A stretch of 63,186 bases of DNA, filler included, from Psammoneis japonica (Eukaryota): NCBI GenBank assembly GCA_008632985.1. It is 3 parts of 3 records of this genome, joined end to end, with 100 filler letters (N's around TTAATTAATTAA, not from the genome) between each part and the next. Parts side by side here need not be neighbours in the genome. Positions count along the whole stretch, not along the records: positions 23,209 to 46,033 come from QPGO01000436.1; 2 more parts are not named here. One strand, 5' to 3'. Position 1 is the first letter of the stretch. Each line of letters starts with the position of its first letter. Below are positions 10,699 through 44,264 of this stretch, in pieces. The notes under the pieces are model-generated. The model was not told the origin of the DNA and ran no database searches. It saw only the letters and a program-made list of their open reading frames with translations. The translations under genes were made by a program, and so were the position numbers.

Positions 10699-13600
10699 AG
10701 TAAGACACCGGCGCAACGTTTCCTTAGAATTTGCCCCGACACCACCTCTATTTGCTTAGGGGCTGCTAGCTTGTTGGCTACATGGCACGGTGAATATATC
10801 GCATTAGTAAAGCGCCGCGTAACAATAAACAGCATCGTCCCAACAGATTTAGCTCTGTTATTTGTTGTTCCCAAAAACACTTGCATCACGCATCGATCCA
10901 CACCACCGCTTGTGTATTTTCAATTTCTGTCCTCGTCACATGCCAATCAAGTTTTGAACATAGCGAGCGTTCTCTGTTGTGTGTGAGTCACCTGATTGTT
11001 CGCTGCCCCACCAGCCTCAATGGACAGTCACTGCGGAGTGAGACTCACGATTTCCTTTGCAGGGTTTCAGAAACTTTGTGGTGGGCAAGGGCCTGATGTG
11101 TTGGGGAGGAGGAGTTTGCACTGTTGACAAACTCCCTCCTGCTGACAAGCATCCTCCTTTGAGGAGGTGGTGTGACAGCCTCCAGGACATTTCTTCTGAG
11201 GTTGTCAAGAGCTCGGTCTCTGAGTCTGCCGGCAAAGCCATGATGTGGATTGGCTGCTGGTCTTGCTGTCTTACATGGTTCAGAGATCTGGGGTGCATTT
11301 GCAGCACTTGGTTTCTGACAGCCAACACAGCACCCAGAAAACTGAACCTCTGTTGTGCCCCCCCTCTCAACAAACTTCCTGGGTGTCCCCCAGAGATGTT
11401 CAAGAATCTTGCAGAATTTCTGGAAGTGCTCTTGATGAGCCTGACCCCCTTCAGCTTCTTGTTCAATTTGTTTAAAATGGGGGCTGCTTTTTGACACACT
11501 GCAGCAGTTCTCAAGTGTGTTTCAACATCTGGGGGCACACTTCATGGTTCCTCTGGCAGTTGCCAAAGTTGCCACTTGAGTCTTCTGTGCTTCTTGTGGA
11601 ATGAGCAGCAAAGAGCAGCAAAATGAGCCAAACTCACCACACTTTGTTCCCCAGAGCAAGATTTGCTTCAAACAACTCCAAATTTGCCATGACACACAAA
11701 TCTTGATTGTCCAGATGCATGTCAAATCTGAGGACAATGGCAGTTTGCCAGCTCTGGCACTTTAAGATCAGCCACACATGATTTGATCATGTTGCATCTT
11801 GTGAGTGATGCACAAGAGCAAGTGCATGCATTGGGCCACAGCTGTCATCAAACAAAGACAAAACTGATTCCTCAAAGAAACAGGAGCAGATGAAGAGGAG
11901 GGGAGACAAGAAGATCCAACAATCAAACAGTCTTAAAGAGGAAATCCATTTGGCTGGCATTGCAAAGACAAAAGTTTCTGAGTTGAAAGGTCTCTGGTGA
12001 CAATGTGGGCTCATGGTGTCCAGCAAGAAAGCTTGTTTTTTGGAGATGCTGTGCAGCAGAAGATTTGTTTGACAGGATGAAAAAGTCAATGATGCAGTCC
12101 ATTGGTGAAAAAGTGCAGCAAAAGAGCTGCTCAAGTGGGGTCAACAAAAGCCATGACACTGGCTCATGACAGAAGCATGGGTGCCAAGGATGTCTGCTGG
12201 CAATGCCTGACATCTTCAGAGCCAGCTTTGGTTGTTTGAAGCATCATGTGAAGCATGAAAAAAATGCAAGACAATTGCCAAATCTAATGGAAGAACTTGC
12301 CCTTGCTCATGACAGATGCTTCTTCCCAAAGAAGGCACTCAGCTCCTTGGCAGACCACATTGGGAGGGCTTTTGGCAGAAGCCTCTTTAAAGTGGAACAT
12401 TGACAGAAAACAACAAGGTTCTGCAGTTCCAAAAGTGCCCCAATTTTCTCATGAGGAGTGCCAAGTGTTCTCTCTCTTGAAGCACTGCAGAGCACATTTG
12501 TCAAGAATCCAAAAGACACAGACACATGAGGACTTGGTGCAAACACCCAGGAAGAGCAGAGGCAAAAAGAAAAAGAGACAAAAGTGGGTGACAGATGCCC
12601 AAAACTCAAAGCATCTGAGCCAAACAAAACACATGCCACATGACATTTCACAGGACCCAAAAGAACTTCCTGCCTTGCTGCTTTTCCATGCATGATTTGG
12701 CCTGGGATGTGAAGGCAGCAGCAGCATGTTCTGTTTGGCAACTCCCACGCAGCTGGATGATTGACAAAAAATGCCACAACTTCAAGATTCATTGTGAACA
12801 ATGCAAGAACCTTCATGTTGTCTTTTTTTCATGCAGAGGGGTGTCAAGTGTAGAGTTTCAGGGTCAAAGATCTCCACGTTCGTCACACAAAATCTCAAGC
12901 ACATGGGGCACTGTGCCCAGAAATCTGTGCAAAAAATCTTCTCTTGGCAATCTAACAAGTTTCACAGTCTCAACAACTGACTCAGTCACAATGAAAGCAA
13001 TGGCCATTCTGTTCACTCACAGGGCAGGACAATGGACAAGTTGGTTGCACCAAGATTCAATGGGTCTGTCAACATGAAATGTTGTGGTGGGGGGACAAGT
13101 TCAACAAGCCACCCCAAACACTGTGCATGGTGTGCTGTGCACAATGCACAAAGGCAGTGGGGGTGGTGGTGCCAGCACCTGCAATGATGCATCAGCAAGT
13201 GTGGTGTCATCAAGGAGTGCAGATGGAACAGCAGGTGGGGGTTGGCAAAAGTGAGCAAAGCAAGACGGAAACAGCAGCAGCTTGTTGAGCTTCAGAGCAT
13301 GCTGTGATGGGCAAGCTCATTTGTGGGCACTGTGGGCAACTGGGCAATGTCATGGCTGAGACTCTTGGGGGCAATGGCATGGCTGACACTCTGAAGGCCC
13401 TGCAGCAGAGCAGTGTCACACCCTGGCCCAAAGCAAGCGGGGGTGGCTGGCTTCCAACCAAGGGGCCTTTTGGCTGGGGGGGGGGGGTTCGTCATGAGCA
13501 AGAAGACATCAAAGACTTGCAGATGTGGGACATTTGAGGGAGAAAGCAGAGCAGATGTCCCCAGGAGTGTGGAGTGGAAGATGCTGGCATGGCGGGGTTG

Positions 13601-13817
13601 GGCTGGCAGCCAAAAGAAGAGGCAATGGGCAAAGCAGCAGTCATTGCTGGAGAGCCCAAGTGTGCTCAATGGCAAGTTGGCGGGCAGCGGCAAGCCCATT
13701 TGAATGGTCAGCAGAAAAACAATTCAGGCAAGCCAGCAGTTGAAGAAGGTGATGGCTCGTGAGTGGCAGTGTCAATGGCGGCACACGGCATGTGTGTGGG
13801 AAGATGACGAGGGGCAG

Positions 13818-14489
13818 TGACAGGATTTGAACAGGATGTAGGTGCGCGCGAAATGTCGCGCGCCATTTTAGTTTGCCGCACACAGTTTTGTGTGCTCTTT
13901 AGTTCCGCGCGTACGCGCGCGATGCATTTTGCTTTTGAGCCACACGGCTCACAAGAACAACACCCTGATCATCACAGAAAATCTGTGGCACAGATTTGGG
14001 GTTCAGATTTGTTACAGATTTTCAAGGGGTCCGCAGAAACAGTTGCAGATTTTCAAAAAGCACAAATTTTCAATGATTCAGCGAAAACTGGGGTTGATTT
14101 TTGCTGGAACTCGGCTGATTCTGCGATCTTAGAAGAACCCTCCTGCAGGCCCGGCACGTTAAAAGCAGGCCCGGCACGGTCTGTGTGCACCCTGCGTGCA
14201 TTTGTGCTAAAGAGGGGGAAGACAGACGTTGCACAGATTCCAGATTTTCGGTTCTAAAAACTTGCAGATTTTGTTCGGCCCCTAAAAAATTCTTACAGAT
14301 TTTATTTTTCGGCACAGACTTTCTATGATAATCAGGGTACACCGGCAACAGCAGGGCCCTGGCCCGATTGTGCCGACTTGCACGTCTTTCGGCTCCTGCA
14401 ACGGTCTCTGAGCGGAGACTCATCTGCTGTCCAGACAGTGGCAAGGAGTTGTTGTTTGAATTCTTGCCATTTGCCTTCAATTCTTAACA
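13818..14489 (+). repeat. 5' LTR (contains MITE insertion)
   Basis: TGACAGGATTTGAACAGG...TTCTTAACA; matches the 3' LTR apart from the 375-bp insertion and small indels. Confidence 0.92.
13963..14337. mobile_element. MITE with ~25-bp TIRs and TA target duplication (Tc1/mariner-type signature) nested in the 5' LTR
   Basis: Left CA|CCCTGATCATCACAGAAAATCTGTG, right CACAGACTTTCTATGATAATCAGGG|TA; internal repeated (A/G)CAGATTT motif; absent from the 3' LTR. Confidence 0.85.
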
Positions 14490-15456
14490 GATTGACAGTC
14501 TCGCTCATTGTCAACCCATTGAGCAAACGCCATCATCATCGTTGATTTACCGACGACGCTTTTTTCAATTCCGCGTGGACCTCCGTGTGTGTTCTGCGCA
14601 TGCATCGGCAAGTCTACGCGCACTCAATGCCAGGCATCGGCAGGAATTTAACGTCACCGTCAAGTCTCCTTACAGCTGGACATCTGGATTGATTGCACTG
14701 CCTTTTGTTGCTGAAGACATGCATTCAACGGTCACATCCAAGTCTGTCCTTAATCCTCATCCCTTGATGTGCCCATTCAACGGTTGACGGTCAAGAACCC
14801 CACATGTTCAAAGCTCTTCGTCGCTGAAGACACATGTGTGCATCTTCACGGGCAAGAACTTGAACCCACTCTTCAGACTGCGGCTTTGCCACCACTCTAC
14901 AAGCACACCGAGTCCATTGTGCCTGATCTGCCCCGGACCACTGGTGCTCTGCAGTTCCACTGGGTCCATGAGGACGACTGTGAGAGCAAGCAGCCGTGAT
15001 TGCAGCCTGCGTTGGGGCGAGGGTAATTTCCCACATTTGTTTGTTCGTCCACAGCGCCTGGCGCCTGCGTCAACTGGCCAGCCTGATCGGGAAATCCAAC
15101 TGACATGAAACAAGAACGGTTCGGGGGTCTTGTCCACCTCCAGTCAGCTTGCCTGCAGGGGTTTACAACCCGCTGCTCCGCTCGCAAGCAACCCAAAGCG
15201 CCGCCAGCTGCGGGTTCGGACGTGCCGGCACAACTCTGCGGACCGGACAGGAAGCTCAGCAATTAACTGCGAACGGGTGGCACAACCCGGCGGCTTCTGA
15301 CTTGTGAGACAGCTCAAGTTTTCAAGTCAAGTGTCAAGTCGATCCCAAGTCATTTCAAGTCTGCTCTCCATCAAGTCGATCCCAAGTTGTTTCAAGTCTG
15401 CTCTCCCACTCCAGTCCACTCTCCAACTCTGGTCCCGGCACCCAATCAGTTGCACC

Positions 15457-16735
15457 ATGGTTCTCACCAGACAGCAACAAACCGATGGTTTTGAGCACGT
15501 TGTTGGAACTGTGCTTGCCCAAGGTGCTGGAAGCCCTCTTCATTTGGCTTTGACCCATGACGGCACGGACTCGTGCCAAGAACTGTTCACATTCACACCT
15601 TCCCAAATTGACTTGCTTGAGTGCGACAATGGCACCAATGTGATCCCATTGCCCCGAGGTTATAAGAACATGTTAGCAGCTCTAGCCAAGCTGTGCATTG
15701 TCAAAGCACACAAAGGCCTTGATGTCGCCAATGACTCCTCGTTGTTCACACATGATGAGTTCCTTGCCTGCCGCCTCAGCCCTGACTGCATGTCTTCTGT
15801 GTCCATCGGCAGCTCACCTCTTGCACCCCCGCATGTCACCAACTCGACCAAGGCACGCGACCCAGTGCGTGACTTCAAGCGAGGCATCAAGCGCAACCCT
15901 GCTGCTTTCACGGCTCTCAAATCCGACAAACAGTGGCACACTTGGCACACCTCACGAGGATGGACAACGCCACAGAGCTTGCATCGTCAAGGCCGTCAAA
16001 GATCATGACTGGAAAGTGAACGGCAACCCCGAGCTCACTAAGTTCATCTGCTCTGTCAACAACGATGAATGCGAGGAAGTCCTGGCCTGCAACGACATCA
16101 TGAATCACATTGAGCAAGAAGACAAAGACACTGCTGTTTGGAAATTTCGATGCATTGTGTCACACGAAGGACCTCTGAAGCCTCATGACCCAACCTGGAA
16201 AGGCTCAAGCTACAACATCATGCTTGAATGGGAAAGTGGGGAGATCATGTCTGAGCCTCTTGCCATCGTCACCAAGGACGACCCTGTCACCTGCGCCATC
16301 CATGCACGAGAGAACGGACTTCTCGACACTGATGGCTGGAAGCGGTTCCGCGCCATCGCGAGGCGTCAGAAGAAGCCATCCCACATGGCCAACCAAGCCA
16401 AGCTTCGCTCCTTCTGCACTGCACCTCGCTGCAAGTGCGGATGCAAAGTTCCCCGGAACTGCAAACATGCCATGTCCCTGGACGAACGCAATGGCAACCG
16501 CAAATGGGGAGATGCAACCAATCTCGAGATGGGCCAACTCGATGAACGCAAAGTCTTTCATGACTGCGGGCCCTCCGAGTCTTCCACTCCTCCTGCGGGA
16601 CACAAGAAGATCCGAGTGCACCTGGTGTGCGATGTGAAACATGAAGGCTCCCGCAACCCTGCTGACATTCTCAGCAAGCATTGGGGTCACTCCCAAATCT
16701 GGGACCTTCTCCGTCCCCTTGTGTTTTGGAACTTC
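15457..16735 (+). pseudogene. Copia gag (5' part) fused by deletions to integrase-RT linker, RT start and RNase H end
   Basis: gag FKRGIKRNPAAF..LK...W..W; pol EEVLAcNDI, WKFR.I..HEGPL, KGSSYNIMLEWESGE, DDPVTCAIhA, NGNRKW, KKIRVHLVcDVKH, then NPADILSKHWG. Deletion junctions near 15950 and 16648. Confidence 0.9.
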
Positions 16736-16787
16736 ATTCCATCCGAAGTCGAATCTGTTTCTGTGACTCCTCAAGCAAACTGGGGAG

Positions 16788-17066
16788 TGACAGGATTTGA
16801 ACAGGATTCAGGTGTGCGTGAAATGTCGCGCGCCATTTTAGTTTGCCACACACAGTTTTGTGTGCTCTTTAGTTCCGCGCGTGCGCACGCGATGCAGTTT
16901 GCTTTCGAGCCACACGGCTCACAAGAACAATGACAGCAGCCCGATTGTGCCGACTCACACGTCTTTCGGCTCCTGCAACGGTCTCTGAGCGGAGACTCAT
17001 CTGCCATTTAGACAGCAGTGAGGAGTTGTTGTTTGAATTCTTGCCATTTGCCTTCAGTTCTTAACA
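16788..17066 (+). repeat. 3' LTR (279 bp)
   Basis: TGACAGG...TTCTTAACA followed by TSD GGCAG. Confidence 0.92.
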
Positions 17067-17644
17067 GGCAGCAGCTGACAGCAGCACAACAAGAAGCTGG
17101 GGCCAGCCAGAGGAGCCAGGTGTGCCAACATCTGCGGCTGCAAGATTTTCAAGCAGCAAATGCAGCAAAAAGGTTCACAGTTTCAAGATGGACCACGTAA
17201 AAGTGTTGCAGCATGGGTTGGAAGAGATCGGATGGAAGGCATCATTTTTTGTTCATTGTTCGGCAACAGAATGTGCGATCGAGTGCAGGAACAAGAGAGA
17301 TGAAAGACGGCATGGCTTTGGTGTCATGCATGGGCACTTATGGCTTGTACGTTGAACGTACTGTACCGCTCCGAAATGAAGGTGATACAGGAACGAGTAA
17401 CATATTTAATGCATGCCCGTTTATTTTATATTCAAGTATGAATGTACCGGACTTCGAAACCAAAAACGCAACCTTCAAATCAAACTCGACTCCGTTCTGT
17501 CGTCTCGTTGAGATGCATTGATTGTGACAATGAAGCAGATGATCTTTTGTTCTTAAAACGCGTTCTATTTTGACGATGATACCGATGACGGCAAGCGAAA
17601 TAAGGTGCGAAAGGCGTCCCTCAGAAGCGCAGAACAGCAATGCT

Positions 17645-19925: not shown

Positions 19926-21570
19926 TCACGCTGACGGCGTTTCAGGACTGACTATACTGAAATCACACGTATGAGGTACGGCAGAAGCAGTCAGGCGGGT
20001 CAGTGGCGCCTTGGTCGGGGGTGCAGCATCCACGCCGGGTGGGTGCTTCTGTGGCATGTTTTGTTGCCACCACATCAAGACAGCAACATTGAAATGGAGC
20101 ACCACCATGGCAGGCAACCATCACTGTGACAGCCATTGCTGTGACAAGAAGAAGTGTGAGATCCCTGTGATGCAAACCCCACATCAACAACCAAGGCAGT
20201 GAGACAGAGGGGGGTTTGGCTGCCAGCCGCGCGCACTTTGTGCGCAAAATGAGCTCGGCCACTCTGCTTCAGGGCTGATTGTGCTGAAATCAAATGCAGG
20301 ACCAGACACATGTGAAGCCAGTCATGTGTTGAAACAGTGTGCCAGCAGGTTCTGTGTGCCAAAAACTTCCAAGACTTCGAAGCTCCTCATGACCAAAGCC
20401 CCCCGAAGATGTGGAAGGTGGCTGGACCATCCTCGCCACAAGAAAGCAGCCAATCAAGGCAGTTGCCCAACTTGCATGCTTTGTCCTCTTTGTCATCTCC
20501 AGAGTTGTTGTTTTCTGTGACATTCCAACCTTTCTGATGATGCTTTGCTGGCTGGGCAGCCACGCTGAGTCTTGTCTCTTTGCGCTTTTGGACAAAAGCA
20601 CTTTGTGCTCTCAAGAACAGAGTTTTGTCACTCTCTTTGTTTTCACCAATGGATCCTTTGACACCCATCTCCTGGGCAGCTGTCCTTGCAAGACTTGCCC
20701 AAACTGGCTGAATTTGTGGCTTTCGTTTGTGGCCTGTTTCATCATCTCCTCCTTCGTCTCATCCTTGGCACACTGAATGATGCTGGCTTCCCAGGTGCCA
20801 CACCCCAAGGCGAAGATTCCCTTCTCTCAGTGTGTCATCCTCTGGCTTTCTTGTCATCAGCACTGGAACTGGCATTGCTTGAATCAGGTGAGCTCAAGGC
20901 ACGGCTGCTCTCACAATGCTTGTCTTCATCTTCAGATGTGTCGCCACAAACATCAGACCAAGAGCTCATGTCATTGAGGCACTGGCACAAGAAAGTCAGT
21001 TGCTCCCTGCACTTTCATTGTTGTTGTTGCCATTGTCCATGTCACATGGGCAAGGTGATTTGGAAGCACTGTGGTCCTTGTCCTTCTTGGCTCGATTCAA
21101 ATCATTGAGACCAGGAAACAACACAGACTTGGAGCTGGGCTGAGGGAAGCAGTCATCAAGGCATTGACTTGATTTTTCCTCCCAGAACATGTGCACTCAT
21201 TGTTGTTGGTGCTGCCCTCAGCACTGTGTGGATCAGGTGAGTTTTTTGTCTCACTGCTCTTGTCACTGCTGTTCTCATTGTCAGATGTGTTGTGGAGTTC
21301 AGAATGAGAAAGCTTGCCATCAAAATGACCATCTAATTTCTGGCTTGGACTCCAGAACTGCATCAAAAGTCTCTTCCTCCCATGGCATGATGCGACCTTT
21401 TTGTCATTGTTGCTGTTGCTGCACTCTTGCTCATGTTGAGCAACATATGATGTGGCAGACTTTTTGGGAAAAATTGCAGACAGGCAACTGCCTTTGCTGC
21501 TTTCTTCACAATCAATGGCTGGCTGGTGCTGGCCACCTCCAACAAACACAAACGCTCAACTCAGGAGTTT
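19926..21570. mobile_element. Decayed TE relic, TpA- and CpG-depleted
   Basis: Composition signature; abuts and appears to truncate the 5' end of the next gene. No family motif recognised. Confidence 0.5.
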
Positions 21571-22495
21571 GTTGAGCCATGTGGTCAAAAATCGGACCAC
21601 TTGCTTGGATTCGGAGTTTATGATTGCACTTTCGAGATTTCTCGGAGCATCTCAGTTAAGTCGACTGCTGGATGAGCCTTGTTACGCTATGCTCTACCGG
21701 GTGATTGGGAGCGTTCCATCGCTCGAACATCTTTCCTTTCAGCGACGCTCTACTTCCACACTTGATGGTAACCTTCAAGTGATTCCAAAACTGGACACGC
21801 TATTCCAAGAACTCGAGGGACATCCGTCACTGACATCTTTGATCATCGCGGGTTTTGACTGCTTTGTTCAGCCGGAATACGAGGCACTTCTTATCATGCT
21901 AGAGCACGCTTCTTGTGGGCTCTCGGAGCTAAGCGTTTACGACAGATATATCCAGAGAACGACTGACTGGACTTCTGAAAATCAGGCTTCAACAAAACCC
22001 CCCGTTTGGAAAAGCTACCTATACATTCGCCATCACCCCATCGATCTTCTACATTGGGGTTGCCAACCGCAAAGGATAGCGGCCCTATTACTAGCAGCAA
22101 ACTTCGACTACTGGGGCTTCCGAGGGTACAGAAAGTGGCGCTCCCTGGGGAGGATGAAGCGTCAAGGGAGTCGAGACTTGCAAAAAGCCGAGACATGTTG
22201 TACTGTATAGTAGAACGGCACCCGAGACTAACAGATACTATGTCGTCTGTGGCCGAGCTGGACACGACCGGGAAGATCCTGCAACTGCTTGATCGAAACC
22301 GCTCAGGACGTTTCTTGTTTGTTGACCGGGAGATTTCTGCTCAGTTTCCAGACTCGCTTTGGCCGCTTGTCCTGGAACGACAACATAGGCAAAGGCACGT
22401 TTACGTTCAAATACGATTTCCTGGGCGCCTTGCTTCGGCAGGTTGATGCATTGTATTGGTTGCTACAAAACATTGGTGACCGGATCGGAGGATGA
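21570..22495 (+). pseudogene. LRR/RNI-like diatom-family gene, 5'-truncated and frameshifted
   Basis: LRR-like LEHLSF, LTSLII, LSELSV segments and C-terminal LLDRNRSGR...LWPLVLER...DALYWLLQ motif spread over three frames. Confidence 0.55.
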
Positions 22496-23108: not shown

Positions 23109-23208
23109 NNNNNNNNNNNNNNNNNNNNNNNNNNNNNNNNNNNNNNNNNNNNTTAATTAATTAANNNNNNNNNNNNNNNNNNNNNNNNNNNNNNNNNNNN
23201 NNNNNNNN
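23109..23208. other. Artificial contig linker (N-run + TTAATTAATTAA + N-run)
   Basis: Six-frame stop spacer; identical structure at 46034-46133. Confidence 0.97.
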
Positions 23209-26200
23209 TCCTCCCCCTCTTCCGCAACGGTTCCATCCGCGCCCTCTACGACCAATCCCGTTCGATCCCTGCTCCCGACACATCCGACGAACCTCCTGAC
23301 TTTGACAACACATCCTACGCCCACTCCGCCCAAGTTGCCGCCAACGTCAATGACCTCCATGCCGCCTGCGCCCGGGCCACCTCCTCCCTCCCCATCGCCT
23401 CTCTCACCCCCGAACGCATGGAGCTTGTCAAGCAACTCCACCCGCCCCGCAAACACCCACCGCTTCCTTCCCCCCCATCCACCAGACACCACCGCTCTAC
23501 CTCCTCCCCCCTGCACTTCACCACCAACGACCTCCGCAAAGCCCTCGCTAAATGTCAACCAGGCAAAGCTCCCGGCACCTTTGCCGATTCCACCGACCTG
23601 TTCAAGGCCCACGCCCTCCACCGCCACTCCACCCCAACCTCCACCTCATGCCCCTGCCTGCTCACCTTCAAACATCTGCTTGACCTCATTCTTGCAGCAG
23701 ACATCCCCACATCCATCAAGCCCGCCTTTTCTTCCAACTGCTTCCTCGCTCTCCACAAAGACTCCTCCAACCTTTCCAAACTTCGCCCCATCGGCGTCGG
23801 AACTGCCCTTCGCAGAATCGTCGGCACCCTCATCATGTTCCTCTTTGCCGCCACCTTCGCTGCCAACCTCCTCCTCTCCGGCCAATTCGGAGTCGGCGTC
23901 AAAGGCGGTCTCGACCACCTGGTCGACACCACCTGTGCCAACATTGAGCAATTCTTTGACCCAGACTCCACTCCAACCAAGGCCCTCCTCCTCCTCGACT
24001 CATCAAATTGTTTCAATGAATGCTCCCGTGACGCTTGTCGCGACACCCTCGACAACTCTGACGAATGCCACCCCCTCATCCCTTTCTTCGACCTGCTCTG
24101 CCAAAACCCCAACACTTGCTGGTGCCGTGACCACCGCTTGCAATGGTCCTCCTTCTCTCAGCCCGAAGGATTTGCTCAAGGCTGCCCCCTCAGCCCTGCC
24201 TTCTCCTGCCTTGTTTTGGCTCATGCATTCCAACCCATCAACGACGACCTACATCGTCGACTCCCTCCCCGCTCCAAGTCTGCCACCTCTTCTCACATCA
24301 ACGACACCCACATCTTCCTTCCCTTCTCCCAGCTCCCCTGGTTCCTCAAGCGCCTTTCTACCTCTGGTCCCCAATTCGGCATCAAGCTCAACCCCTCCAA
24401 GACCCAAATTCTCACCTCCATCACCGGCTCCTCTCCCATCAACTGCCTTCCACCCTCCGACACTGCTGCACTGTCCGAGGCCCTAGCCTTCCTCAACCCT
24501 CACAACGATCCCCACATCACACCCGAAATCACCACCGGCACTCGCTTCCTCGGTCGGCCCATCGGCTCACCCGCTTTCGCCCTCGATTTCCTCTGCAATG
24601 AGGCCATTTCCTTTGCCACCGACCTTCATCGCCTCACCGTCCGGCTCACCGACAAACAAACACAGAGCACCCTCTTCCACAAGTGCTCACTCCCTTCCAT
24701 CACCCACCTGCTGTCTGTGGACGCATGCTGCAACCTTTTGCCCTCCGATGACTTTCCACCTCCCTTTCAGTGAGCATCCCCCTTCGTCGACAAAATCATT
24801 GGCCACTCCCTGCGATTCCTCACCTGCCTCACCCAATGCACAGACCCCCTTCCATCTGCCTCCAAACTCATTGCCACCCTGCCCGTCTCTTTGGGCGGCA
24901 TCAGATGTCGCGACATCTCCGCCGTCGCCATCCCTGCCCTCATCACCTCCCTCCTCTGCTCCATCCGCTGCACCAAACATGGCATCCCACTGACCGGTGG
25001 TGCCATCTTCCACCTTCCCTCAAGCCGCTCTTCTGCTCTTGGTTCATGGTCCAACCCCCGCTCCACCCTCTCCCTCTACCAAATCTTCCGCCACTGCGCT
25101 CCCACCCTTCTCAAGCTCGACTCCCCCTCTTTTACCTCCCTTTCGCACGCAGTCGAACACCACAACCTACGCGGTCTCTCACAGCGCCTCCACCTGCACC
25201 ATCACACACACCACACCCTCCCCTTAATCCTCGCCGATCCTTCCATCCAACCGACACTCCCATCCCTGCTGTCGCCCCTCACAAGCCTGTGCCTTCACTC
25301 CCCATCCCGCATCCCACCCTCCAATCGCCTTCTGCCCCATCTTTTCATGATCCTCCTCTTGCGCAAGCTCCGTCTCCCTGTCATCCCACCCAACCTCTCC
25401 CAACACAACTGCCCATGCGGTCACGCCCGCCCCGACCCATGCGGCGATCACGCCTTTGCTTGCTCCAAAATGCACAAAGGCCCCCTGTCCAACCACATCC
25501 GTGACACGGTCTGTGCAATCATCGAGACCCTTGGTCCTCCATGCGGCCTCTGCCGATCCCGCCAACAAGTCTGCCTTGACCCTGCCGGACTCCCACCCGA
25601 CCACCCTCTAAAACGCCCCGCCAACCCTCTAAAACGCCCCCCCAACCCCAACTCACCCCCGGCTCCACACCACCAGACGCCCCATCCACCCATCAATTCA
25701 CAGCAATTGACATCACCGTGCCACCCGCTCCCCCACCTCCTGCACCTGGTTTGCCTGTCCCTGAAAACCCACTTGACAAGGCTCACCTCAGCAGCACTCG
25801 GGACAAGCTCCTCGGCTGCTCTACATCCTCCGCCCACGGTTCTGACATCATCGACGCCATCAACCAAGCAGGCCTCTTCCTCCTCCCTTTCACCTTCGAT
25901 CACCTGGGAGGCATCGGACGCCACTTCCATCTTTTCTTTTTTGGCGCCTCCACCACTGCCTCCTCCTCCGTCCCCCCCCTCCCCCCAAACCGCCCTGGTC
26001 CCATCCATCCTCTTTCTCTAACTCTCAAGCATCCTTCTCTGCCTTCACCAACTCCCTTTTGGCTCCTTCCAACCTCCTCACCCAATCTAACGCGGCCTGG
26101 AAACAACTTTCCCCCGCCCACTTCAGCTCCTCCTGCCATGCTGCCACACCCCTGCTTTGGGCTTCCCAAACCCTCAGCCTCAACTTTGGCTTTGCTCTCT

Positions 26201-26370
26201 CCAACCATCTCTCTGCATGTCGAGCTTTCCTCCTCCGCCATCCCTCCATCACCAACTCCTCCTCCCGACCGTCCGTCCGCACCCTCGGCCAACCCTTTTT
26301 CTCTCCCTCTCCCAGCGCGCTCCGCGCGTCCGCGCGCTCCCTCCGCCACCTATTTCCCCAACACCACAAC
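23209..26370 (+). mobile_element. Non-LTR retrotransposon of the restriction-like-endonuclease group (CRE-like), decayed, 5' end lost at gap
   Basis: RT motifs KAPG, LRPIGVGTALRR, QFGVG, LLD.SNCFN, GFAQGCPLSP, ShInD (YxDD), GIKLNPSKT, FLG.PIG; LP..LGG; CCHC finger CPC...DHAFAC; RPA(D) and IDITV RLE motifs; very C-rich sense strand. Confidence 0.9.
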
Positions 26371-26372
26371 TA

Positions 26373-26953
26373 CCAGTAAAAAACCGAATTGAGTCCTTGT
26401 GACTGAACTGAGTCCTTGTCCGACCCACATGTTGAATCGATCGATAAAATGATGAAAAAACCAAGTAATCAAACTGTTTTTGTTGCTGTGATAATCTTCA
26501 ATTGCTGCTGCTTCTGACCATGTGTTTGGATTTGGGTGTTTCAGTTTTCTCCGGCTGCCCGTTGCCGTCGAACATGGTCGTTTGTATTTTTTGAAGCGGA
26601 AACGAGATTCAACAATTCTCATGTAATTTTTTTATCAAGACACGTACATCATATATCCTCACTGCTCCGTGCTGCTTGCTGATTTGGAGATATGTTGAAT
26701 TTCTTCTGGTACTTGACACGTAGAAATGTACAGGGGGGCCGAATTGAGTCATTACGCGAAAAAGGTGCAACTTTTGCAGCTAGATTAAGCTAATCCCAAG
26801 CCCATTTCACAACCGACTATCATCAAAGAACTCGTTAAGAGATGATGAAAAGCTAGGAAATGCGAAGAAATGGTCAGTTTTAGGCCAATGATGGGCAAAA
26901 AATGGCCATTCAACATATGGCAAAAATAAGGACTCAATTCGGTTTTTTACTGG
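26373..26953. mobile_element. MITE, 26-bp perfect TIRs, TA TSD
   Basis: TA|CCAGTAAAAAACCGAATTGAGTCCTT ... AAGGACTCAATTCGGTTTTTTACTGG|TA; partial internal TIR copies near 26406 and 26739; no coding capacity. Confidence 0.92.
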
Positions 26954-27117: not shown

Positions 27118-27918
27118 ATGTCAACGGGTTTTGGGCAGTGGTATGAGGATCAAAAAACATCCGAGGAGGACGGCAACGAAACATCCTCCTCGTGGTGGGG
27201 CGGCGACGGCGATACGCTTCCTCTGTTTGGAGACACGAGTCAGTACAGCATGTCCAGTCTCAAGGCTAGTATGGAGTCACAAATGCCACAGAAAGTCATG
27301 GGTATGAATTATCAGCAGCGACTAAAGGTATGTTTCAAAAATTTGAACTCGGTATGTTTGTTGCGAGGCCGTTGAAACGAATTCGCTTTCACTTGCTCAA
27401 CCGTTGTTGTTGATTGCCAATCATGTTTTTGTATTCAAAAGATGTTTACGGTTTTGATCTTTCTATCGGCGCTCTTCTTTGGCTTGGGATTCGGCGTGGG
27501 CATGCCTCTTATTGCCGTTCGGCCTCAAAAATTCGCTCTCTGTTTCACATTCGGATCGCTTACGTTTATGGGAAGCTTTGGTATTCTAGTTGGTCCTATG
27601 GAGCACTTCAAAAGCATGCTGACTGCAGAAAGACTTCCCTTTACAACTATCTATCTTGCGAGCATGTTTGCGACCATTTACTTTACCTTTAATGCTGGTG
27701 GCGCATCTGGTTACGTCCTTGTGTTGGCGTCAAGTGGCTGTCAATTAGTGGCGCTCTTGTGGTACCTTATATCCTTTATACCCGGTGGATCGGCGGGACT
27801 GCATATGCTAGCGAGTGCCATGGCGAAACTTTTACGACCAGTCGTTGTGGCGTGTGTCAAACTCCAAGCAGCCTGCGTCGCTCGATTTGCTAGCTGGATG
27901 ACGAGTAGCAATTCATAA
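27118..27918 (+). CDS. Got1/Sft2-family vesicle transport protein; 2 exons (27118-27327, 27442-27918)
   Basis: MNYQQRLK|MF, RPQKFALCFTFGS, GPMEHFKSM...RLPFT..Y, ALLWYLISFIPGG; in-frame 114-bp GT..AG intron. Confidence 0.92.
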
Positions 27919-30405: not shown

Positions 30406-30908
30406 AAAGAGTAGCTCAGCTGACCTGAGGATTGCTACGCAGTGAAAAATAATGAACTGTAAAGCTGGCGAGTCGCAGCGAGACAAGACTAATTGCGTCT
30501 AGGATTCTCGCATGACCACACCTACCCTACCGCTGCTTGCTAATTCATATCCATACAAAATCCATTTGTTCATGATGCTGGATAGACGGACACAATCAAT
30601 AGACGGAGGTGCAATTGAAGTTGATGGTGGCTTACATCTTTCATAGTAGCACCTAATCAAACTTGACAACGCCTCAATTAAAAGATAGGCATGTCAAAGT
30701 AGAAACTTAGTTATTGTACATTATTTCCACGTGACCCCTACTGTATCGAGGCGGAGTGAATCCAATCGAGCATATCGGAGGTATATGTGGTCTAGTATTC
30801 GACTTTCCCTGGGTTTACATTCAAAAAAGGGCTTATCTTGTTTTTCAACGTCGTTTTTTGAATTGTCGCTTCGTCGCCTTTCGTTTGTCCTACTCTACCC
30901 TTCAATCC

Positions 30909-31870
30909 TTAGTCTCGGAAACGACAAACGCAGCAACATACCAGTAGAAGCATCATGCTATGAATCACCATGCCTAATAGTTGTTGCTCCACATGCGCAC
31001 CGACGTGTTCAAATGCATACTCTGCCACGGTGAACAAGGCATAGAAAAAGGTCAATACGCACAGTAGGGTCAGCAAGACTGTGCAGCATGTTTTGGGACC
31101 CAATGTTGTATCGAAAAAGTAATAGAGAAAATGCGGTCCACCCCCTGGTATCCATCTATGTATCATGCTCCAAGTAAACGCAACGTAACAAACACCAAAG
31201 AGCGGTGCTACAGAAAAGTCTGACGATCGCACCGGGAGGCCACCCAACAAGCCAACCTCTGAAAGAGAAAGCACTACGTTGGCATTATGCCATAGCAAGG
31301 TCCGCACAGTCTTTAGCGGAGACGTGTCTACCTTGCACCGAAGCATGTTTGTCCATATTCCGTATCGAACAACCATGGACACCAAGAGACTTGTTGGAGC
31401 AGCAATTTCAAACAGCACTACAGCAAGTCGCAGCATCCAACGAGGTATGTTTTGCTCCTGAAGGATGCAGTGACAAATCATGGCGTTGATTCCAAAGGAA
31501 GCTGTTAATATATTCCACGCCCAACTTGTGAATGGCATCATCGTCCGAAAGCCATGCATGGGTATTAAAGCTTTTTGCACTTGGACTTGGGCAAGTAATT
31601 TGTGGCCTGATCCCAGCCGGGTCGGAAAAACACTTCCCGAACTTGCAAGGTCAACATAAAGATGGCAATCACTGTACGTATCCACGTCAGAGTTGGTAGA
31701 GATAGTATGTCATCAAACACTCGATTCGTAAAGGTTTCCACAGTCGCAATCTCATCGAGCGACTTCCAATTGGGTAGCGTCTTTACAAACACAGCAGACA
31801 TCACTCCCAGCAAAGCTACCGCTGCAAGTGGAGGCGTCCCATCTGCTTCCTTTCTAACTTCTGTTGCCAT
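30909..31870 (-). CDS. Multi-pass membrane protein (FAR-17a/AIG1-like), one frameshift near 31580
   Basis: ORF 31870-31565 joins ORF 31685-30909 if one base is restored at SK|(L)QKAL; motifs FTSWAW, HNAN, FLYYFFDTTLG. Confidence 0.7.
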
Positions 31871-32236
31871 CTGATGCTTCAGTCGTACACCTCTTTTGGG
31901 GGTTGCTCTTCAGATTCAGTTGCTACTCTGATAGCTATTAGAGTCTATCGCATTGCTGTTTCGGCAAGCCTCAAGCCGATGATTGCATGTCGGGGAGCAA
32001 GAAATTCCGGATTTTCTTCCGTAGAATTTACTCGACCTAAATTCTACTCATACATTCCAAGTCTGACAAAGGGCTGCATTGCATGAGGGGGTTACTTTCG
32101 ACCAAATTGTTCCCCCGTTATGTCCCGCCGGTAAACTGACGAACATCGCAGAAATATGAGCGATACTATGGCGAACTTTGCGGCGCTGCATCGCTTCAGT
32201 CTTGGCGGATATTCGAACATAGAAGGTAGATGAGCA

Positions 32237-33074
32237 ATGCCCTTCTCTGCTAGAAATAGCGTTGCTATTGTGCCGTCTACTGCGGTCGCTGTTGCGTGGT
32301 GGCAGCTTCTGCGATTTTTTTCCAGAGAAGAAAATCGTTCGACGACGAACCAACGCGGTGTGCAAAGTATTCATGTGAATGTGGAAAGGTTCAGGCCAAT
32401 ATCTCTATTCCACCTGCTAATTATAGGTACATTGAGATCCCTTCCTTTCAGTGCTTATGCAATGATTGCGTCGATTTTGTGAACAAGGTATAAGACCAAC
32501 GCACAAACCGGGTATCTACGTTAATGAGTTCTTTTCACGTTTGTGTGGCTAAATCTATTTTGTTTTATTTTCATCATTTCTATCAAAGGTTCAATCGCAT
32601 TCCGCTTCAAACAACAACAGATTGCTTTCTCCCGGAATCGAAACCTTGGTTTTGCTAGACTCGGAAATTGAGCTCACTTCTGGCGCGGATTTGATTCGAT
32701 CAATGAAACTATCCAAGAACACCGAGAACCGCCGCATCTATTCAACTTGCTGTGCAACGCCCATGGCAATAAGCATAATGGGAACAGGCGTCACCTTGAT
32801 TTATACAAAAAACTTGAATGACGAAAACAGCAGCATGCCGGAGTTGAAACCAATCGTGTGTTTCAACGTCAATGGCAAGATCAAACAACAAGACTATCCC
32901 GAGTTGAAGCTTTCACAGGGACAGCTTGCCCCAAAAGCGATTCTTTATTGTCTGGCACATATGGCATCCATTGCATTGCTCGGGAAAAAAGATGGACAAG
33001 GAAAAGGATTTCCCATGGAAGGAGAGATAGACGTTGGAATCGACTCGATTGATTCAAGATTTGAGTCACAATAA
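32237..33074 (+). CDS. DUF6151/GFA (Mss4-like) Zn-binding protein; intron 32488-32588, probable frameshift near 32296
   Basis: CECGKV, CLCNDC, RIYSTCCATPM motifs; in-frame GT..AG intron. Confidence 0.72.
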
Positions 33075-33169
33075 GTGACGGGTGAACCGCTTTCCAGTGA
33101 TGTGTTTAGGTTGTTGTAGTGCAACTTTATATCTCGCTAGTGACCCATTTGTTGTTTTGTAGCTTGTGT

Positions 33170-36100
33170 GTCAGGCTGCCAGAGTTGCAGCATTGCCGTG
33201 CTCTATGCAGGGTGCAAATCTCTGGGCACTCGTGGAGTTTCTAGAGACTGGGCACTCAGACAAGTCTCAGGTTGCAGAACCACCGCAGTGAAGGTCCGAC
33301 AATGTCCTCCCCTGTCCCTGGTCCTTCAAAGGCCGCTGCCCACTCCTCCTTCCCACTCAGAATTCCCATGTGCAAAACTTCACCCACCCCAAAAACTCCT
33401 CACTCATGTTCAAAACAACTCCCGCTCTGCAAAAAAGCTCTGCTCACACCCAGAAGGAGCATGCTTTGCTGCAGCACTTAAAAAATCACAACAAAACACA
33501 GCCAGCCCACACCCAGAAGCATGTTCAATGTGGTGGCAAGCATGAACAACTGTTGGTTGTGACCAGAGAGTGTCTCGCGCTGTGGGCCTGGCGAGGCGTG
33601 CAACAGCTGGGCCCAAGGAGGAGATGATGGAAATGCAAGCACAAGCAGAAAGCAAGCAACATTGTCATGACCAGCATGCCAGAGTTGAGGCCAGTGATGT
33701 GTTCCAATGCCAGTGGTGAGATCAAGCAACAAAAGACCATGTCAAGTTAAAGCTTCAACAGGGATGGCTCTTGTGCCAAAGGTTGTTTTGAAAGAGATTG
33801 ACAAGGAAAAGAGAGCTTCCTGCTAAAAGAGCAGCAGATGTCAAAATTGACTCAGCAGTTGACTTGGGGTTTGAGCAAAAGTGAGATGAGTGAACACTTT
33901 TTAGCAGCTCGTCAGGGTCGCTGCAGCGCCTCTTGGCTGCTCTCTGGCAGCCGTTTCTTGTTTTTTGTTTTTTGCTTGTGGCTTGTTGCATGGTCTCACA
34001 CTGTCAAGTTGCCAGAGTTGTTGCAGCAGCACGACAATGCCAGCTGTGTGGAGGAGTGCAGCATCTCTGGTGGGTGCTTGTGGAGTTTTTGGGAGCTTTG
34101 AACCAACAAGACAGCCTCTGGCTGCAAAGCTGTCATGTGGCAAAGATCTTGCAGCCAACGTCTTTTCCTGCCATGTCGCTTCAAAAACAGCTGCCCACTG
34201 ACTCCATCCACTCAGAACTCTGACATGCTGCAAAACTTCACGTGCCCCAAGAGCTTCTCGCTGACATTCAAAGTGACTCTCCTGCTCTGCAAAAGAGCTT
34301 TTCTCACAGTTTGCGCCAAGAAAATCTGCTCACACACAAGAGCTCACCTGCCCCAAAGCTCTGCACACAGCTGGAAAAAGCAGGCTTTTTGCCCACAACA
34401 CTCAAAGCCAAGGCTTCAGTCAGTGCCACATCCAGAAGTGCACTTTGTGCCTGCAGCACTCAAAACCAAGGCTTCTGTCAGCCCTGCAAGCACCCAGAGA
34501 TGTGCAGTGCTTTGTGCGGCAAACACAAGAGCAGCATTTTCTGGTTGTGACCAGAGTCTCTGATGCCTGCCTTGGGCAGAAGTCATGCAAACAGCTTGCT
34601 GGTCTGACCTGCTGATGAGCTTTCACTTGACTTGGCTGCTGCCATGCAAGTGGAGGTTAAAACTCTGTTCTCTTCATCAAGCCATTGAGCAAAACCGACC
34701 CCTCCAGCACTCTTGGCACAGCTGAAAACTTGCTCCAAAATTGGCTCACAACATGTGAATTTTTTGCTGAACACACAACAACTTGGCTTGTGCCCTGCAA
34801 GGGTGTCTTGCTGGGCTTTTGATCAAAATCTCATCTGTGGTGTCATTGCCTCTTTCTCATTTGGAAAACTTGGTTGTTGCTCTTGTTCAAAATTGAGATT
34901 TGCTCAATGAAAAACATGTGTTCTGGTTGTTGACCTTGCTCCTTCATTGTGAACAAATTGACTTTGACAATTCGCTGAATTGGCAAAGTGGGAGACCTGG
35001 CTTCATGAGAAAAGGCAGCTTGGCAGAGCTTTTGGGCCATGGTTGAGATTTGTCTTGAACTTGGCTGTCTTGCGTCTTGGTGTTCTTGGCTGTGCTGGCA
35101 CATTGCACCATGTTCCAATCTTTTGTGTTTCAATGAGAGTTGGTTTTTGTGATGGCTTTTCATTGCAAAACATGACAGCAATGTCCCTCCTGGCAGAAGA
35201 CAGCAGAGAACTTGTCAGTTTGGTGCATTTTCTTCAGCAAGAGTGGGTGCTGCAACACTGCTTTTTCTGCTCACCTGAGTGCAATGTTGCTGCACTTTAT
35301 TTCTTGTTTTTGTTTGTTTTTGTCAACTTGTCTGAGCTTTAAGAAACAAAAAAAGCATGGAAAAAAAGCATCAGTTTGTTGCTGTTTGCTGCAAGCTGCT
35401 TGCTCTCATGCCACAATTTTGTCCTCTTGACTTTCCTGTGGCTTTTCTGCATTGGTGTGTGCAGAGTCCTGGGTGTCATTGATGTGTTCCTGTCATGTTG
35501 TCATTGTTTGTGTGCTGCTTGGATTCATGCTGTGTTTTTGCATTGCTTTGTGTGAGAATTGCGCGCCTTTTTTCCATGGAGCCATGCCAGCTGTCCTGGC
35601 AATCATTGCCCACGTCCTTGGAAGCAGTCAGTTTTTGCAAAAAAAGCTTTTTGTCACACTCGCATTTGAAGTTTGGGGGTTTGTTTCAAGGTTGATCTTG
35701 TGGCTTGTGGCATTGTGGCCACACATGTCATGTTGTGCCCAACAGCAGCAGACTTGAACTTCCAAACTCCAGAGTGAAAGACCCCACAGCAGTGCCAGCC
35801 AACCTGACAACAGCAAGCTGAAGACTCTGGCTGTGTCTGTTGGTCCCCAGGCAACACCTTGAGAACTGCAGCTGGGCATTGCAAAGTTGATCTTGCAGCA
35901 TTGTGACTCCATGTCACCTTGTTCCCAACAGCAAAGAGTTGCTCACACCCAAAGGTTTGGTTGCCAAAGGATGGCATTTTGGATCCATGAGCAAAACTTC
36001 AAAAAGCAATGCATTGGGAGTGCCTGAAATGCAGAGAGTTGTTTTGCAGTGGCAAAATGGCTCAAGGAGAGAGGAGAAATTTGCAGCAGCATTTTTGAAA

Positions 36101-38850
36101 CAAGCTTCTTTTTGTTGGCAACACCAAAGAACTCTGTGACAAAAACAATGAGCCATCCTCCATTTCATCCTGATGCAAAGCTCATGCAAGAGCAGATCTC
36201 ATTGGAGGATTGGCTGAGGTGTGAGTTGGAAATGTGAAACTGGGCTTTGTTGGCTGGCTGCGTGCTGCACAAGAATTTTTAGAGGCTTGAAACCTTGCCA
36301 AGCTTTCCTGCTGCGAGTTGTCACAAGTGAGTCTTTGTGGCCAATCTCACCAATGATGCAGTTGTTGCAATGTGGCTTCAATTGTCCATGTTGACTTTTG
36401 CACAAAGCCAGCAAGCCAGTCGGCGCCAGCACTCAAACAAGCATGGCACACAAAAAGCCCTCTGCTGCAATTTTCTACAGCAAGAGACAAAGCTGGTGCA
36501 TTCTCACAGCAGCAACAAGGAAGAGCTGCACAGACAGCGGCCATGATTTTTGGCATTTGCCAGAAGAAATCTGCGGCCATCATGACCAAAATGGAGTGCT
36601 TGTTGTCAATCCGCAACTTCAAAGTGGCGCTGAATAAAGTGCAGATTCTTGACCCACAGCAGCAAAACCTGGGCCAATGTTGGGGCTTGTCAAAATTGTG
36701 AAAGCCAACACTGGATCATGGAAGGAAAGGACTCAAGCTTGCAGCTTTGTTGTCTGTCAAAAGGGAGCAATTCAATGAGAAGTTTGTTTTGAAAAGAGAG
36801 CATCTTTTCTTCATTGTTGTTGTCAGTCGGCTCACCATGCAGCAAGAATGGCATGGTGGGTTGCAACAGAGGGGCGCGCCATTGTCGCACACACAATCAA
36901 TCTTGGCCCTGGCCTCATTGAGCTGCTGAATGAAGCTGACCCATCTGATGCTTTTGGCACAGCCACAAACTTGGTTGTCCAAAATTGGCTCACAACATGT
37001 GCATTTTTCACTGTGCACACAATGACTTGTGAGACATGTCAAATTTTAAGGCAGCATGCCCTTGACCAGCAAAAATTGCTTGTGCTCCACAAGGGTGTCT
37101 TGAAGGGCTCTTCCTGCACTTTTTCTGTTCAAAACATGTGCAAGACATTTGGAGCTCTTTTTGTGCAGTCACTGGCTGACCTGCATCTGCAGCTGGGGCA
37201 AATTCTCATCTGTGCCACTGCCTTCCTCATCTGGAAAATGTGGTTGCTTGTGTTCAGAATTGAAATTTGCTCAATGAAAAGCCTGTGTTTTTGTTGAGTG
37301 CTCTTTCATTTTGAGCAAATCAACTTCAACAATTGCCCAAATTGGCAAAGTGGGATGAGACCAGACTCAAGGAAATTTGGTCTCACAGTGCTTGGGCTGT
37401 TGATCAGATTTGTTTTGAACTTGGCTGCCTTGCGTCTTGGCGATCTCTTGGCTGTGCTGGCACTGCATTGTGTTCCAATCTTTTGTGTTTCAACATTCCT
37501 GGCAGAAGACAGTGGAGAAGTTGTCAGTTTGTTGCATTTTCTTTGGCAAGTGTGGCACAATGCCTCCATTTTTGCTCGCCTGTGTGCACAATGTTGCAGC
37601 ACTTTGTTTCTTGTCTTTTTTTGTTTTTGTCAATTTGTGAAAGGAAAGTGCCAGTGTTTGTCATTGTTTGCTCCAAGCTGCTTGCTCCCATGTCACACTT
37701 CTGACCTCTTGCCTTTCCTGTGGCTTTTTTGACTTTGCTGGTGTGCGCCGAGTCCTGCGGGTGTTGTTGATGTCTTTTTCTGCAATGTTGTCATTGCTCG
37801 TGTGCTGCTGCTCTTGGGCACATCTTGTGTTTTTGCAGTTGTTGCAATGTGGCTTCAATTGTCCATGTTGGCCTTCGCACAAAGCCAACAAGCAAATTGG
37901 CGCCAGCACTTGAACAAGTGCGACACACAAAAAACCCTCTGTGCAATCTTCTGCAGCAAGAGACAAAGAAAAGAAGATGCATTTTCAGAGCAAGGGCAAG
38001 AAAGAGCTGTGCAAAGAGTGGAGACAATTTGGTGTTTGCCAGCAGAAATCTGCTGCTGTGGCCAAAATGGAGTGCAGTGTGCAAGCATGGACCATCAGCC
38101 CAGACAACTTGACACCCCAAAAAGTGTTTGCAGCGTGCTTGTTGTCAATCTGCAGCTTTAAAGTGGCATTGAATGAAGTGAAGATGGACTCACAACAGCA
38201 ATCTGAGTTGATGTTGGAATTGAGTTGCTGTTGGAATTTGTCAAAATTGTGCAAGCCAAGCCAAGCTGGGCAGAAGGAAAGGACCCAAGCTCACGGCTTT
38301 GCACACTGTCAAAAGGGGCTGGTTCGGTGAGAAGTTTGTTTTGAAGAGAGAGCCTCTTTTCATTGAACATCAAGTTGCAACAGAGGGGCACACCACATGC
38401 AAACAACAGATCTTGGTGCTGGCTGAGTTGTGTGGTGGTGCCCAATGCAACAAAGAGACAAAGAGCACAACAGAAAAAAAAAAACATGGAAAAGACCCCC
38501 ATGGCTGCTGAAAAAATTGACTGTCAAGAACCTCAAATGATGATGGCTTTGTTCTTGGCAACACTGGAAAATGAACCAGCATCAGAACACTGTTTGGAGT
38601 CACAGCTGCAGTGACTGCCTTGGCTTGCTTTTGAAAAATTTTGGCATCTGTGGAGAGTGCAAAACCACAGGCACAAAAAATTTGTTCCTCGCGTCAACGG
38701 ATCTTCTTCTTGTCAAGCACAAAGAACATGTTGCAGACATGCTGACTGAAAGCTTGGCATGAATTGTTGGTGTTTGCCAAATTGCTGAACCGCTGCATGC
38801 TGGATGCCGTGGCAACGCAATGTCCATCCTGCACCTTCTTGGTCGAGGTG
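33170..38850. mobile_element. Extremely decayed TE domain with internal tandem duplications
   Basis: Near-absence of TA and CG. Duplicated blocks ~33350-33570/34200-34560, ~34640-35560/36900-37830 and ~36355-36910/37835-38420. Confidence 0.65.
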
Positions 38851-39134
38851 AGCTGTTGACTGCGGTAAAACTCGGGACTGCGACAGCGCAGCGGCAATTC
38901 AATGCCGATTTTATCATGGATCTCCAAAGGAGACATTTCCTGTCGAAGGCAATGACCTAACATAAATTGTAATCCACCACTAAGATATTTTAAAAATTTT
39001 CGATGACCTTTTGAATGACCAGCATTTGAAACAAGAGTCATGCGGTGGTGGTTGCCACACAAGCTTCCATTTTTTTTGCGGCGCAGTTACCATCGCATTT
39101 GATCCCTCCATTTTGCAATCAAGTCCGAGAGACC

Positions 39135-44170: not shown

Positions 44171-44264
44171 TCACGTTGATGGCATTGCCGCTGCCGCCGC
44201 CGCTCTAAGTTGTATCATTTTACTGCTTTCGATCAACTCACTCCGTCCATATACATACAGTACA

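Follow-up and report, generated by a model that had tools for sequence, protein, structure and literature searches.

TpA loss apart from CpG loss in a dead non-LTR retrotransposon copy of the diatom Psammoneis japonica

A 63,186-nt stretch of DNA from the diatom Psammoneis japonica (assembly GCA_008632985.1), hereafter the window, contains a long interspersed nuclear element (LINE) copy that has lost nearly all of its TpA dinucleotides and kept its CpG dinucleotides. The copy lies on the + strand at 23209–26383. To judge from its reading frames, it is a dead non-long-terminal-repeat (non-LTR) retrotransposon encoding a reverse transcriptase (RT) and a probable C-terminal restriction-like endonuclease, with its 5' end cut by the contig edge. 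We consider it probable that this copy was hit after insertion by a TpA-directed process acting on mobile DNA, and that this process is separate from a slower or conditional decay of CpG. The window is made of three contigs joined at 23109–23208 and 46034–46133 (at each, two 44-N runs on either side of a 12-nt all-frame stop linker), and neighborhood across the joins is meaningless.

The dinucleotide state of the LINE departs from that of its closest relatives. Positions 23209–26370 (A 0.182, C 0.457, G 0.141, T 0.220) hold 17 TpA, an observed/expected ratio (o/e) of 0.13, versus 173 CpG (o/e 0.85), which bears out the statement of the initial annotation that CG remains abundant. The TpA count expected from 2000 mononucleotide shuffles was 126.6 ± 9.2, with a minimum of 98. 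Both CA (o/e 1.23) and TG (o/e 1.45) are raised. The seven closest relatives (L001–L006 and L010) have C at 0.36–0.44 and G at 0.13–0.17 on the sense strand, TpA o/e of 0.43–0.63, and CpG o/e of 0.75–1.14, a range that includes the value of the LINE. C-richness is thus native to the family and the lack of TpA is not; because the relatives are equally C-rich yet richer in TpA at similar CpG levels, the LINE has lost TpA and kept CpG. A strand-symmetrized CpG odds ratio of 0.61 was set aside for the LINE since it results from the C/G skew, and the proper null is the single-strand figure (0.85).

This loss is written into the protein-coding frame. The open reading frame (ORF) at 23418–24773 comprises 451 codons, ends with TGA, and encodes no Tyr, 22 His, and 19 Cys; it holds five TpA, none of them inside a Tyr codon. 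Upstream of 23418, the frame stays open to the contig edge and includes two Tyr (TpA at 23247 and 23316). The initial annotation had described an RT ORF of 451 residues without Tyr and with a catalytic motif reading H-I-N-D, and both descriptions hold: CAC ATC AAC GAC lies in frame at 24294–24305 (+) and aligns with RT motif C of 12 relatives, in which the motif is [Y/F/L]-x-D-D: the first residue is Y, F, or L and the third is D in 12 of 12, versus H and N in the LINE.

Comparison with relatives gives the direction of the change. The relative L008 is a whole element, and 38 Tyr residues of its ORF2 align to the LINE, where they face 9 Cys, 5 His, 8 Phe, 6 Leu, 1 Tyr, and 9 other residues. At nine columns of conserved Tyr, the codons of the LINE include TGC three times and CAC twice. 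Replacement of Tyr by Cys and His indicates TA>TG (TAY>TGY) and TA>CA (TAY>CAY), respectively. The same pattern was found in an unrelated 500-codon ORF at 60219–61718 (−) in the TA-poor 17-kb contig. This ORF has 38 relatives in a representative library, and it keeps none of the 19 Tyr aligned with the best of them, P0127 (60% identical); their places are taken by nine Cys, five His, three Phe, one Arg, and one Ile. No Pfam family was found over the shared region in this ORF or in the nine best relatives tested, and no relatives were found in viral contigs. Pooled over the LINE and this ORF, Tyr>Cys and Tyr>His stand at 18 to 10 (binomial p 0.18). Since both replacements occur, both strands have been hit, which counts against editing of sense RNA before insertion.

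Two rival explanations can be weighed on these data. One is that nothing was lost, a C-rich family with C-ending codons being expected to have few TpA and few Tyr. In its favor, codon position 3 is 62% C, and the relatives are C-rich and G-poor with TpA o/e values already as low as stated above. The relatives nevertheless keep 1.7–3.2% Tyr, Cys and His stand at conserved Tyr sites of the LINE, and H-I-N-D is an inactive motif; moreover, the probability of 17 or fewer TpA at the family baseline is 3e-9 to 2e-17 (Poisson), and that of no Tyr in 451 residues at the relatives' Tyr content is 4e-4 to 4e-7. We regard native composition as highly improbable. The other rival is ADAR-like A>I editing of the element RNA, or editing of its cDNA, before genomic insertion. 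The element is a retrotransposon, and ADAR-type enzymes prefer U 5' of the edited A, as stated in a preprint on the chlorarachniophyte Bigelowiella natans (bioRxiv 10.64898/2026.01.13.699255). This account predicts sense-only A>G, but the LINE shows both Tyr>Cys and Tyr>His and raised levels of both CA and TG, and its changes are not limited to A>G on the transcribed strand. In addition, segments without sign of an RT are equally free of TpA, and repeats within one segment have resolved the same sites differently. Editing before insertion is therefore very unlikely, though we rate it slightly above native composition.

The TpA loss extends far beyond the LINE. Segmentation divided the window into nine TA-poor segments (1–957, 1381–2435, 10851–13911, 14339–17347, 19954–21682, 23209–26380, 33139–38962, 43104–44205, and 46134–63186), which cover 37.0 of 63.0 kb (59%) at TpA o/e of 0.04–0.19, and eight intervening segments, six of which have TpA o/e of 0.51–0.69, while the remaining two are short (423 and 427 bp) and stand at 1.14 and 0.35, respectively. 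The CpG o/e values of the nine TA-poor segments, in ascending order, are 0.19, 0.21, 0.28, 0.55, 0.61, 0.70, 0.83, 0.85, and 0.85; those of the intervening segments are 0.82–1.24 (0.93–1.02 in the six long ones). The initial annotation had named 11040–13810 and 33170–38850 as having lost both dinucleotides, and they have (TpA 0.04 and CpG 0.10 in the former, TpA 0.04 and CpG 0.19 in the latter). The corresponding segments, 10851–13911 and 33139–38962, the latter with diverged internal repeats, have TpA o/e of 0.07 and 0.04 and CpG o/e of 0.19 and 0.21, respectively. At 14339–17347, TpA is low (0.13) and CpG is retained (0.70), and the whole 17-kb contig (46134–63186) is TA-poor (0.06) with CpG at 0.61. 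Normal TpA density is back from 26445; the 3' boundary of the LINE domain and the inferred end of the element are no more than about 60 bp apart.

The two losses share their targets and differ in extent. Among 124 windows of 500 bp, those poor in TA have a median CpG o/e of 0.55 and the others one of 0.95. Within the 63 TA-poor windows, the TpA–CpG correlation is weak (0.29), with CpG ranging from 0 to 0.92. We also set up a mass balance, in which the flanking composition was the starting point and every lost TpA and CpG was moved to CA/TG; it predicts CA+TG within 0.08 in nine of nine TA-poor segments (r 0.95). In the LINE, the loss of TA is enough by itself: it predicts 1.30, and 1.29 is observed. 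For 10851–13911, where 1.75 is observed, the prediction is 1.80 with both losses and 1.43 with that of TA only. In all three CpG-poor segments (10851–13911, 19954–21682, and 33139–38962), a prediction from TA loss without CG loss is too low (1.42–1.46 versus 1.73–1.77 observed), which indicates that the CpG-poor state was acquired by transitions.

Sister copies provide relative rates. In relatives, per-site conversion of TpA is about 2.5 to 5 times that of CpG. Between L004 and L028 (96% identical), 9 of 21 TpA versus 6 of 68 CpG changed to TG/CA (p 9e-4). Between L008 and L012 (75% identical), 105 of 146 TpA were converted and 6 were kept; 58 of 201 CpG changed to TG/CA, and 53 CpG of L012 face CA/TG of L008, leaving no net CpG loss. 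The TA-poor copies from metagenomes (L012, L026, L028, and L011/L013/L018) have TpA o/e of 0.01–0.26 and CpG o/e of 0.58–1.03. The presence of such copies in environmental contigs indicates that the process is not peculiar to one genome.

Given these observations, the following course of events can be proposed. After insertion, the genomic LINE DNA would come under a mutational process directed at mobile DNA, in which A:T>G:C transitions on one strand or the other turn TpA into TpG or CpA. Near-total loss of TpA would remove every Tyr codon of the RT, together with the first residue of motif C. Decay of CpG to TpG/CpA, the opposite chemistry (C:G>T:A), would be a separate process that strikes the same domains more slowly or conditionally and has barely begun in this LINE. 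The first process would act on DNA in place in this organism and is presumably enzymatic, with an adenine deaminase as the leading candidate. The data fit a deamination that turns adenine into hypoxanthine at 5'-TpA, whichever DNA strand is concerned; since the reverse complement of TpA is again TpA, a thymine-directed change on the opposite strand would look the same. The CpG loss of the domains probably stems from 5-methylcytosine.

Several observations weigh against the proposal of a TpA-directed process separate from CpG decay. The 173 CpG of the LINE are fewer than the shuffle mean of 204.7 ± 9.7, and 173 or fewer occurred in 0.05% of shuffles. Other copies read CG where the LINE has CA or TG at 23526, 25348, and 26125, which indicates some CpG decay in the LINE; these copies come from reads of run X1 at 80% likeness, and the places are from the best-supported 40 of 845 differing places. 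The direction of change rests on relatives that are 33–44% identical in protein. Over all 124 windows, TpA and CpG o/e are correlated (Spearman 0.76), so the losses are uncoupled in extent only and not in place. In the L002/L010 pair, differences at TpA and at CpG occur with similar frequency and in both directions; the rate ratio is thus not universal. Finally, the comparable signature of B. natans was seen as new mutations, as the preprint text describes it, whereas the one reported here is known from standing sequence.

The initial annotation had proposed that TpA conversion is faster than, or independent of, 5-methylcytosine deamination. The parts that stand are a separate process, an unequal extent, and a faster rate per site in sister copies; independence of place does not, as both losses fall in the same domains. 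Equal and tightly coupled depletion was not found, the nine segments being uniformly low in TpA and widely spread in CpG. A further proposal was that domains can be staged, TA-only loss being earlier and loss of both later.

In its pure form, staging means that both processes run at fixed rates everywhere, so that the CpG content dates a domain and TA-only domains are young. This is possible, although we give it less than an even chance. The CpG o/e values of the TA-poor segments form a graded series that is lower than those of the flanking segments, and TpA is converted faster per site in sister copies. The number of transversions between repeats is 77 in 1066 sites for a CpG-lost segment and 3 in 278 for one that retains CpG (p 2e-5), but each class is represented by a single pair, which dates the duplication rather than the onset of targeting. 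Read depth of the LINE family (at least 80% likeness) is 827–2496 versus about 55–62 for single-copy DNA, and the CpG-lost stretch 33214–34547 is at 61.9, but depth summed over contigs does not equal copy count. Against fixed rates, L012 has no net CpG loss although it is free of TpA and differs from L008 by 25%, with 405 transversions in 3533 sites, and the 17-kb contig is TpA-saturated at a CpG o/e of 0.61, with no Pfam family among those of its ORFs that were tested. The alternative is that CpG loss is set by 5-methylcytosine on the element or class of transposable element (TE) rather than by time, the LINE copies being poorly methylated. Diatoms methylate just part of their TEs, which counts for this account, as do the spread of CpG o/e from 0.19 to 0.85 among equally TpA-saturated segments, its weak correlation with residual TpA, and the CpG o/e near 1.0 in TA-poor L012, L026, and L028 from other sources. 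The LINE and other CpG-retaining segments are, on the other hand, somewhat under the flanking median of CpG o/e, suggesting some decay everywhere. Uneven methylation taken as the sole cause is rather doubtful, and yet methylation differences between elements explain the data as well as staging does. The order of TA-only loss before loss of both is therefore plausible but unproven: the graded series, the faster TpA rate, and the repeat transversions speak for it, and L012, the 17-kb contig, and the single repeat pair in each class speak against taking it as a rule. That CpG content dates a domain is not established.

The anatomy of the LINE was read mainly from its relatives. A scan of metagenome contigs gave 31 loci of its family. 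L008 has an 802-aa ORF1 and a 1264-aa ORF2, in which C2H2-type fingers at the N-terminus are followed by the RT, a Cys/His motif, and then a PD-(D/E)xK-like core; Pfam gave no AP-endonuclease family in ORF2. The apparent likeness to the R2/CRE/NeSL group lies in the RT followed by the Cys/His motif and the PD-(D/E)xK-like core; L008 adds the N-terminal zinc fingers, without an AP endonuclease, and differs in also having ORF1. The LINE matches residues 216–1243 of L008 ORF2 (blastx, E 2e-133) in three frame pieces, which indicate two frameshifts and one in-frame stop, and the match stops at 26259. The open frame with the RT domain spans 23211–24770 (+; 520 codons), and its ATG-started part is the 451-codon ORF. 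The single in-frame TGA that ends this ORF (24771–24773, +) lies opposite a Trp of L008 ORF2 in blastx, and the same frame carries on beyond it to 26021. In Pfam, RVT_1 matches the frame of the LINE at E 2.7e-6 and 27.7 bits, under the curated cut-off of 29.6, and L008 at 32.5 bits. An alignment profile (A1) matches LINE-1 ORF2p (1.3e-10) and R2 (5.7e-9) in PDB, as expected for a LINE-type RT. The relatives of the RT frame include P0001 and P0002 at 41–44% identity and another from the diatom Seminavis robusta. No second copy of the LINE was found at the nucleotide level within the window or among the 31 metagenome loci.

Downstream of the RT, a Cys/His motif, CxCG...GDHAFxC, marks the start of the probable endonuclease domain at 25410–25466 (+) and aligns with the matching motif of L008 ORF2 (blastx). 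A-I-D-I-T-V at 25703–25720 (+), in a shifted frame, is probably the acidic core of the PD-(D/E)xK domain; it was read by eye and set by eye beside L-L-D-I-T-I of L008 ORF2, as it falls between two blastx pieces. Between these motifs, 25600–25640 contains a tandem duplication of about 21 nt (L-K-R-P twice), which adjoins the site aligned with K-R-P-A-D of L008 ORF2. A short A-run at 26378–26383 (+) is the likely 3' end of the element.

Repeats in the other TA-poor domains preserve traces of the conversion. Those within 33139–38962 differ by 27 CA-versus-TG doubles, and the direct repeats of the 14339–17347 domain (13812–14490 and 16782–17067) by four; a more diverged genic paralogue pair has none. 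Such doubles mark a palindromic dinucleotide that was duplicated and then resolved in a different way in each copy, and their presence in direct repeats therefore indicates conversion after duplication. One copy of the direct repeats carries an insertion of about 390 bp that resembles a miniature inverted-repeat transposable element (13961–14352), with inverted ends; it is absent from the other copy at 16931–16938. The segment that holds it (13912–14338) has a TpA o/e of 0.35 versus 0.07–0.13 in its flanks. A later arrival of the insertion under stepwise conversion would fit.

A total of 161 TpA survive in the nine TA-poor segments, and their contexts are biased: TTAA makes up 23% versus 3% in flanking DNA and CTAA/TTAG 22% versus 8%, while ATAT, ATAC, ATAG, and GTAC are 4–10 times under-represented. 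One factor per 3' neighbor, worked out by hand, roughly fits 9 of 10 contexts. The bias hints at a neighbor preference, or it could reflect how new TpA arise. Separately, 33139–38962 and 43104–44205 have GpC o/e of about 1.5 and ApT o/e of 0.63–0.76, unlike the remaining TA-poor segments; family composition or further A:T>G:C drift could be the cause.

The seven TA-poor stretches scanned for ORFs (about 33 kb; all but 1381–2435 and the LINE) contain 168 ORFs of at least 90 aa on both strands. As TAA and TAG disappear together with TpA, long open frames arise on both strands. None of 87 ORFs from TA-poor segments other than the LINE reached the curated cut-off of Pfam, and two sub-threshold matches were attributable to chance. 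Short-read contigs from run X1 match the TA-poor stretch 30695–35753 with 8 differing letters in 5068, and the TA-poor state is hence not peculiar to one assembly, though the sample may be the same.

Host genes were also recognized in the window. A CobW-like gene at 8340–9236 (−) has 5511 relatives; in a list of 120 of them, the best hits with a name, all diatoms, come from Nitzschia (75%), Conticribra weissflogii (74%), Bacillariaceae (71%), and Pseudo-nitzschia (70%). Two host gene introns with GT..AG ends, 27324–27437 (114 nt) and 32485–32585 (101 nt), are skipped by contigs of run X2, which are thus derived from RNA. An intronless 807-codon ORF under these RNA-like contigs has one protein match (38% identity) in the public collection. 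As nothing nearly identical turned up there, the proteome of this organism is absent from that collection, and B. natans was rejected as the source of the DNA. Run X2 has no contig over 23209–25876 or 33214–38549, and this was not used as evidence either way.

What these results would mean depends on the agent. We give close to even odds, or slightly less, to the view that diatoms carry a TpA-specific DNA-editing defense against transposons and foreign DNA, a reverse form of repeat-induced point mutation ("reverse RIP"), probably driven by an adenine deaminase, the same as the chlorarachniophyte process, and possibly spread across the Stramenopiles–Alveolates–Rhizaria (SAR) group. If so, reverse RIP would have wiped TpA from over half of the sampled sequence, and the mechanism would extend from one rhizarian alga to a major marine algal group. 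Several diatoms can be transformed and gene-edited, and the enzyme could therefore be hunted there. If TpA saturates well before CpG decays, the pair could serve as a two-hand clock of element silencing; TpA loss ahead of and apart from CpG loss would provide a testable ordering of TE silencing, given separate measures of methylation and age. For annotation, dead elements from which TpA has been erased show long false ORFs on both strands, lose Tyr, and escape domain searches.

Known systems resemble this one to different degrees. In fungal RIP, C>T changes at CpA give TpA, so that TpA becomes more common and stop codons appear. The likeness lies in a domain-bound, defense-like burst of transitions that kills TE frames and skews dinucleotides, but the direction is the opposite: here TpA is depleted, CpA and TpG are enriched, and TAA and TAG stops vanish. 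Decay of CpG through 5-methylcytosine resembles what is seen in 10851–13911, 19954–21682, and 33139–38962, where the extra TG/CA accounts for the missing CpG. In the LINE, it is nearly absent while TpA loss is nearly complete, and the CA+TG level there is explained by TA loss alone. The base change is a different one, and the schedule evidently differs as well.

The closest counterpart is found in B. natans. According to the preprint text (Mettrop et al., bioRxiv 10.64898/2026.01.13.699255), mutation-accumulation lines show a mutation rate raised about 1000-fold in two integrated viral regions, where 230 of 231 new mutations are A>G or T>C, all of them at TpA. Its authors also describe an enrichment of RT and DDE domains among coding sequences poor in TA, and they propose an ADAT2-like deaminase as the enzyme. 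Neither CpG nor diatom occurs in that text, and we found no report of a TpA signature in diatoms in the literature, the supplementary tables of the preprint lying outside this search. As far as the preprint text describes the B. natans case, both systems share TpA>TpG/CpA on both strands, bound to domains of foreign or mobile DNA, and a long-term depletion of TpA with an excess of CpA and TpG. In the window, the A:T>G:C change at TpA giving TpG/CpA was found, for the LINE itself through its aligned relatives, and it keeps to domains of mobile or foreign DNA. The present host, a diatom, is a stramenopile instead of a chlorarachniophyte, and the depletion is far deeper, reaching TpA o/e of 0.04–0.19 over 59% of the window versus the Rho of 0.45 that the preprint text gives for the giant-virus region of B. 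natans. The diatom host lineage, the deeper erasure, and the loss of TpA apart from the loss of CpG are new relative to B. natans.

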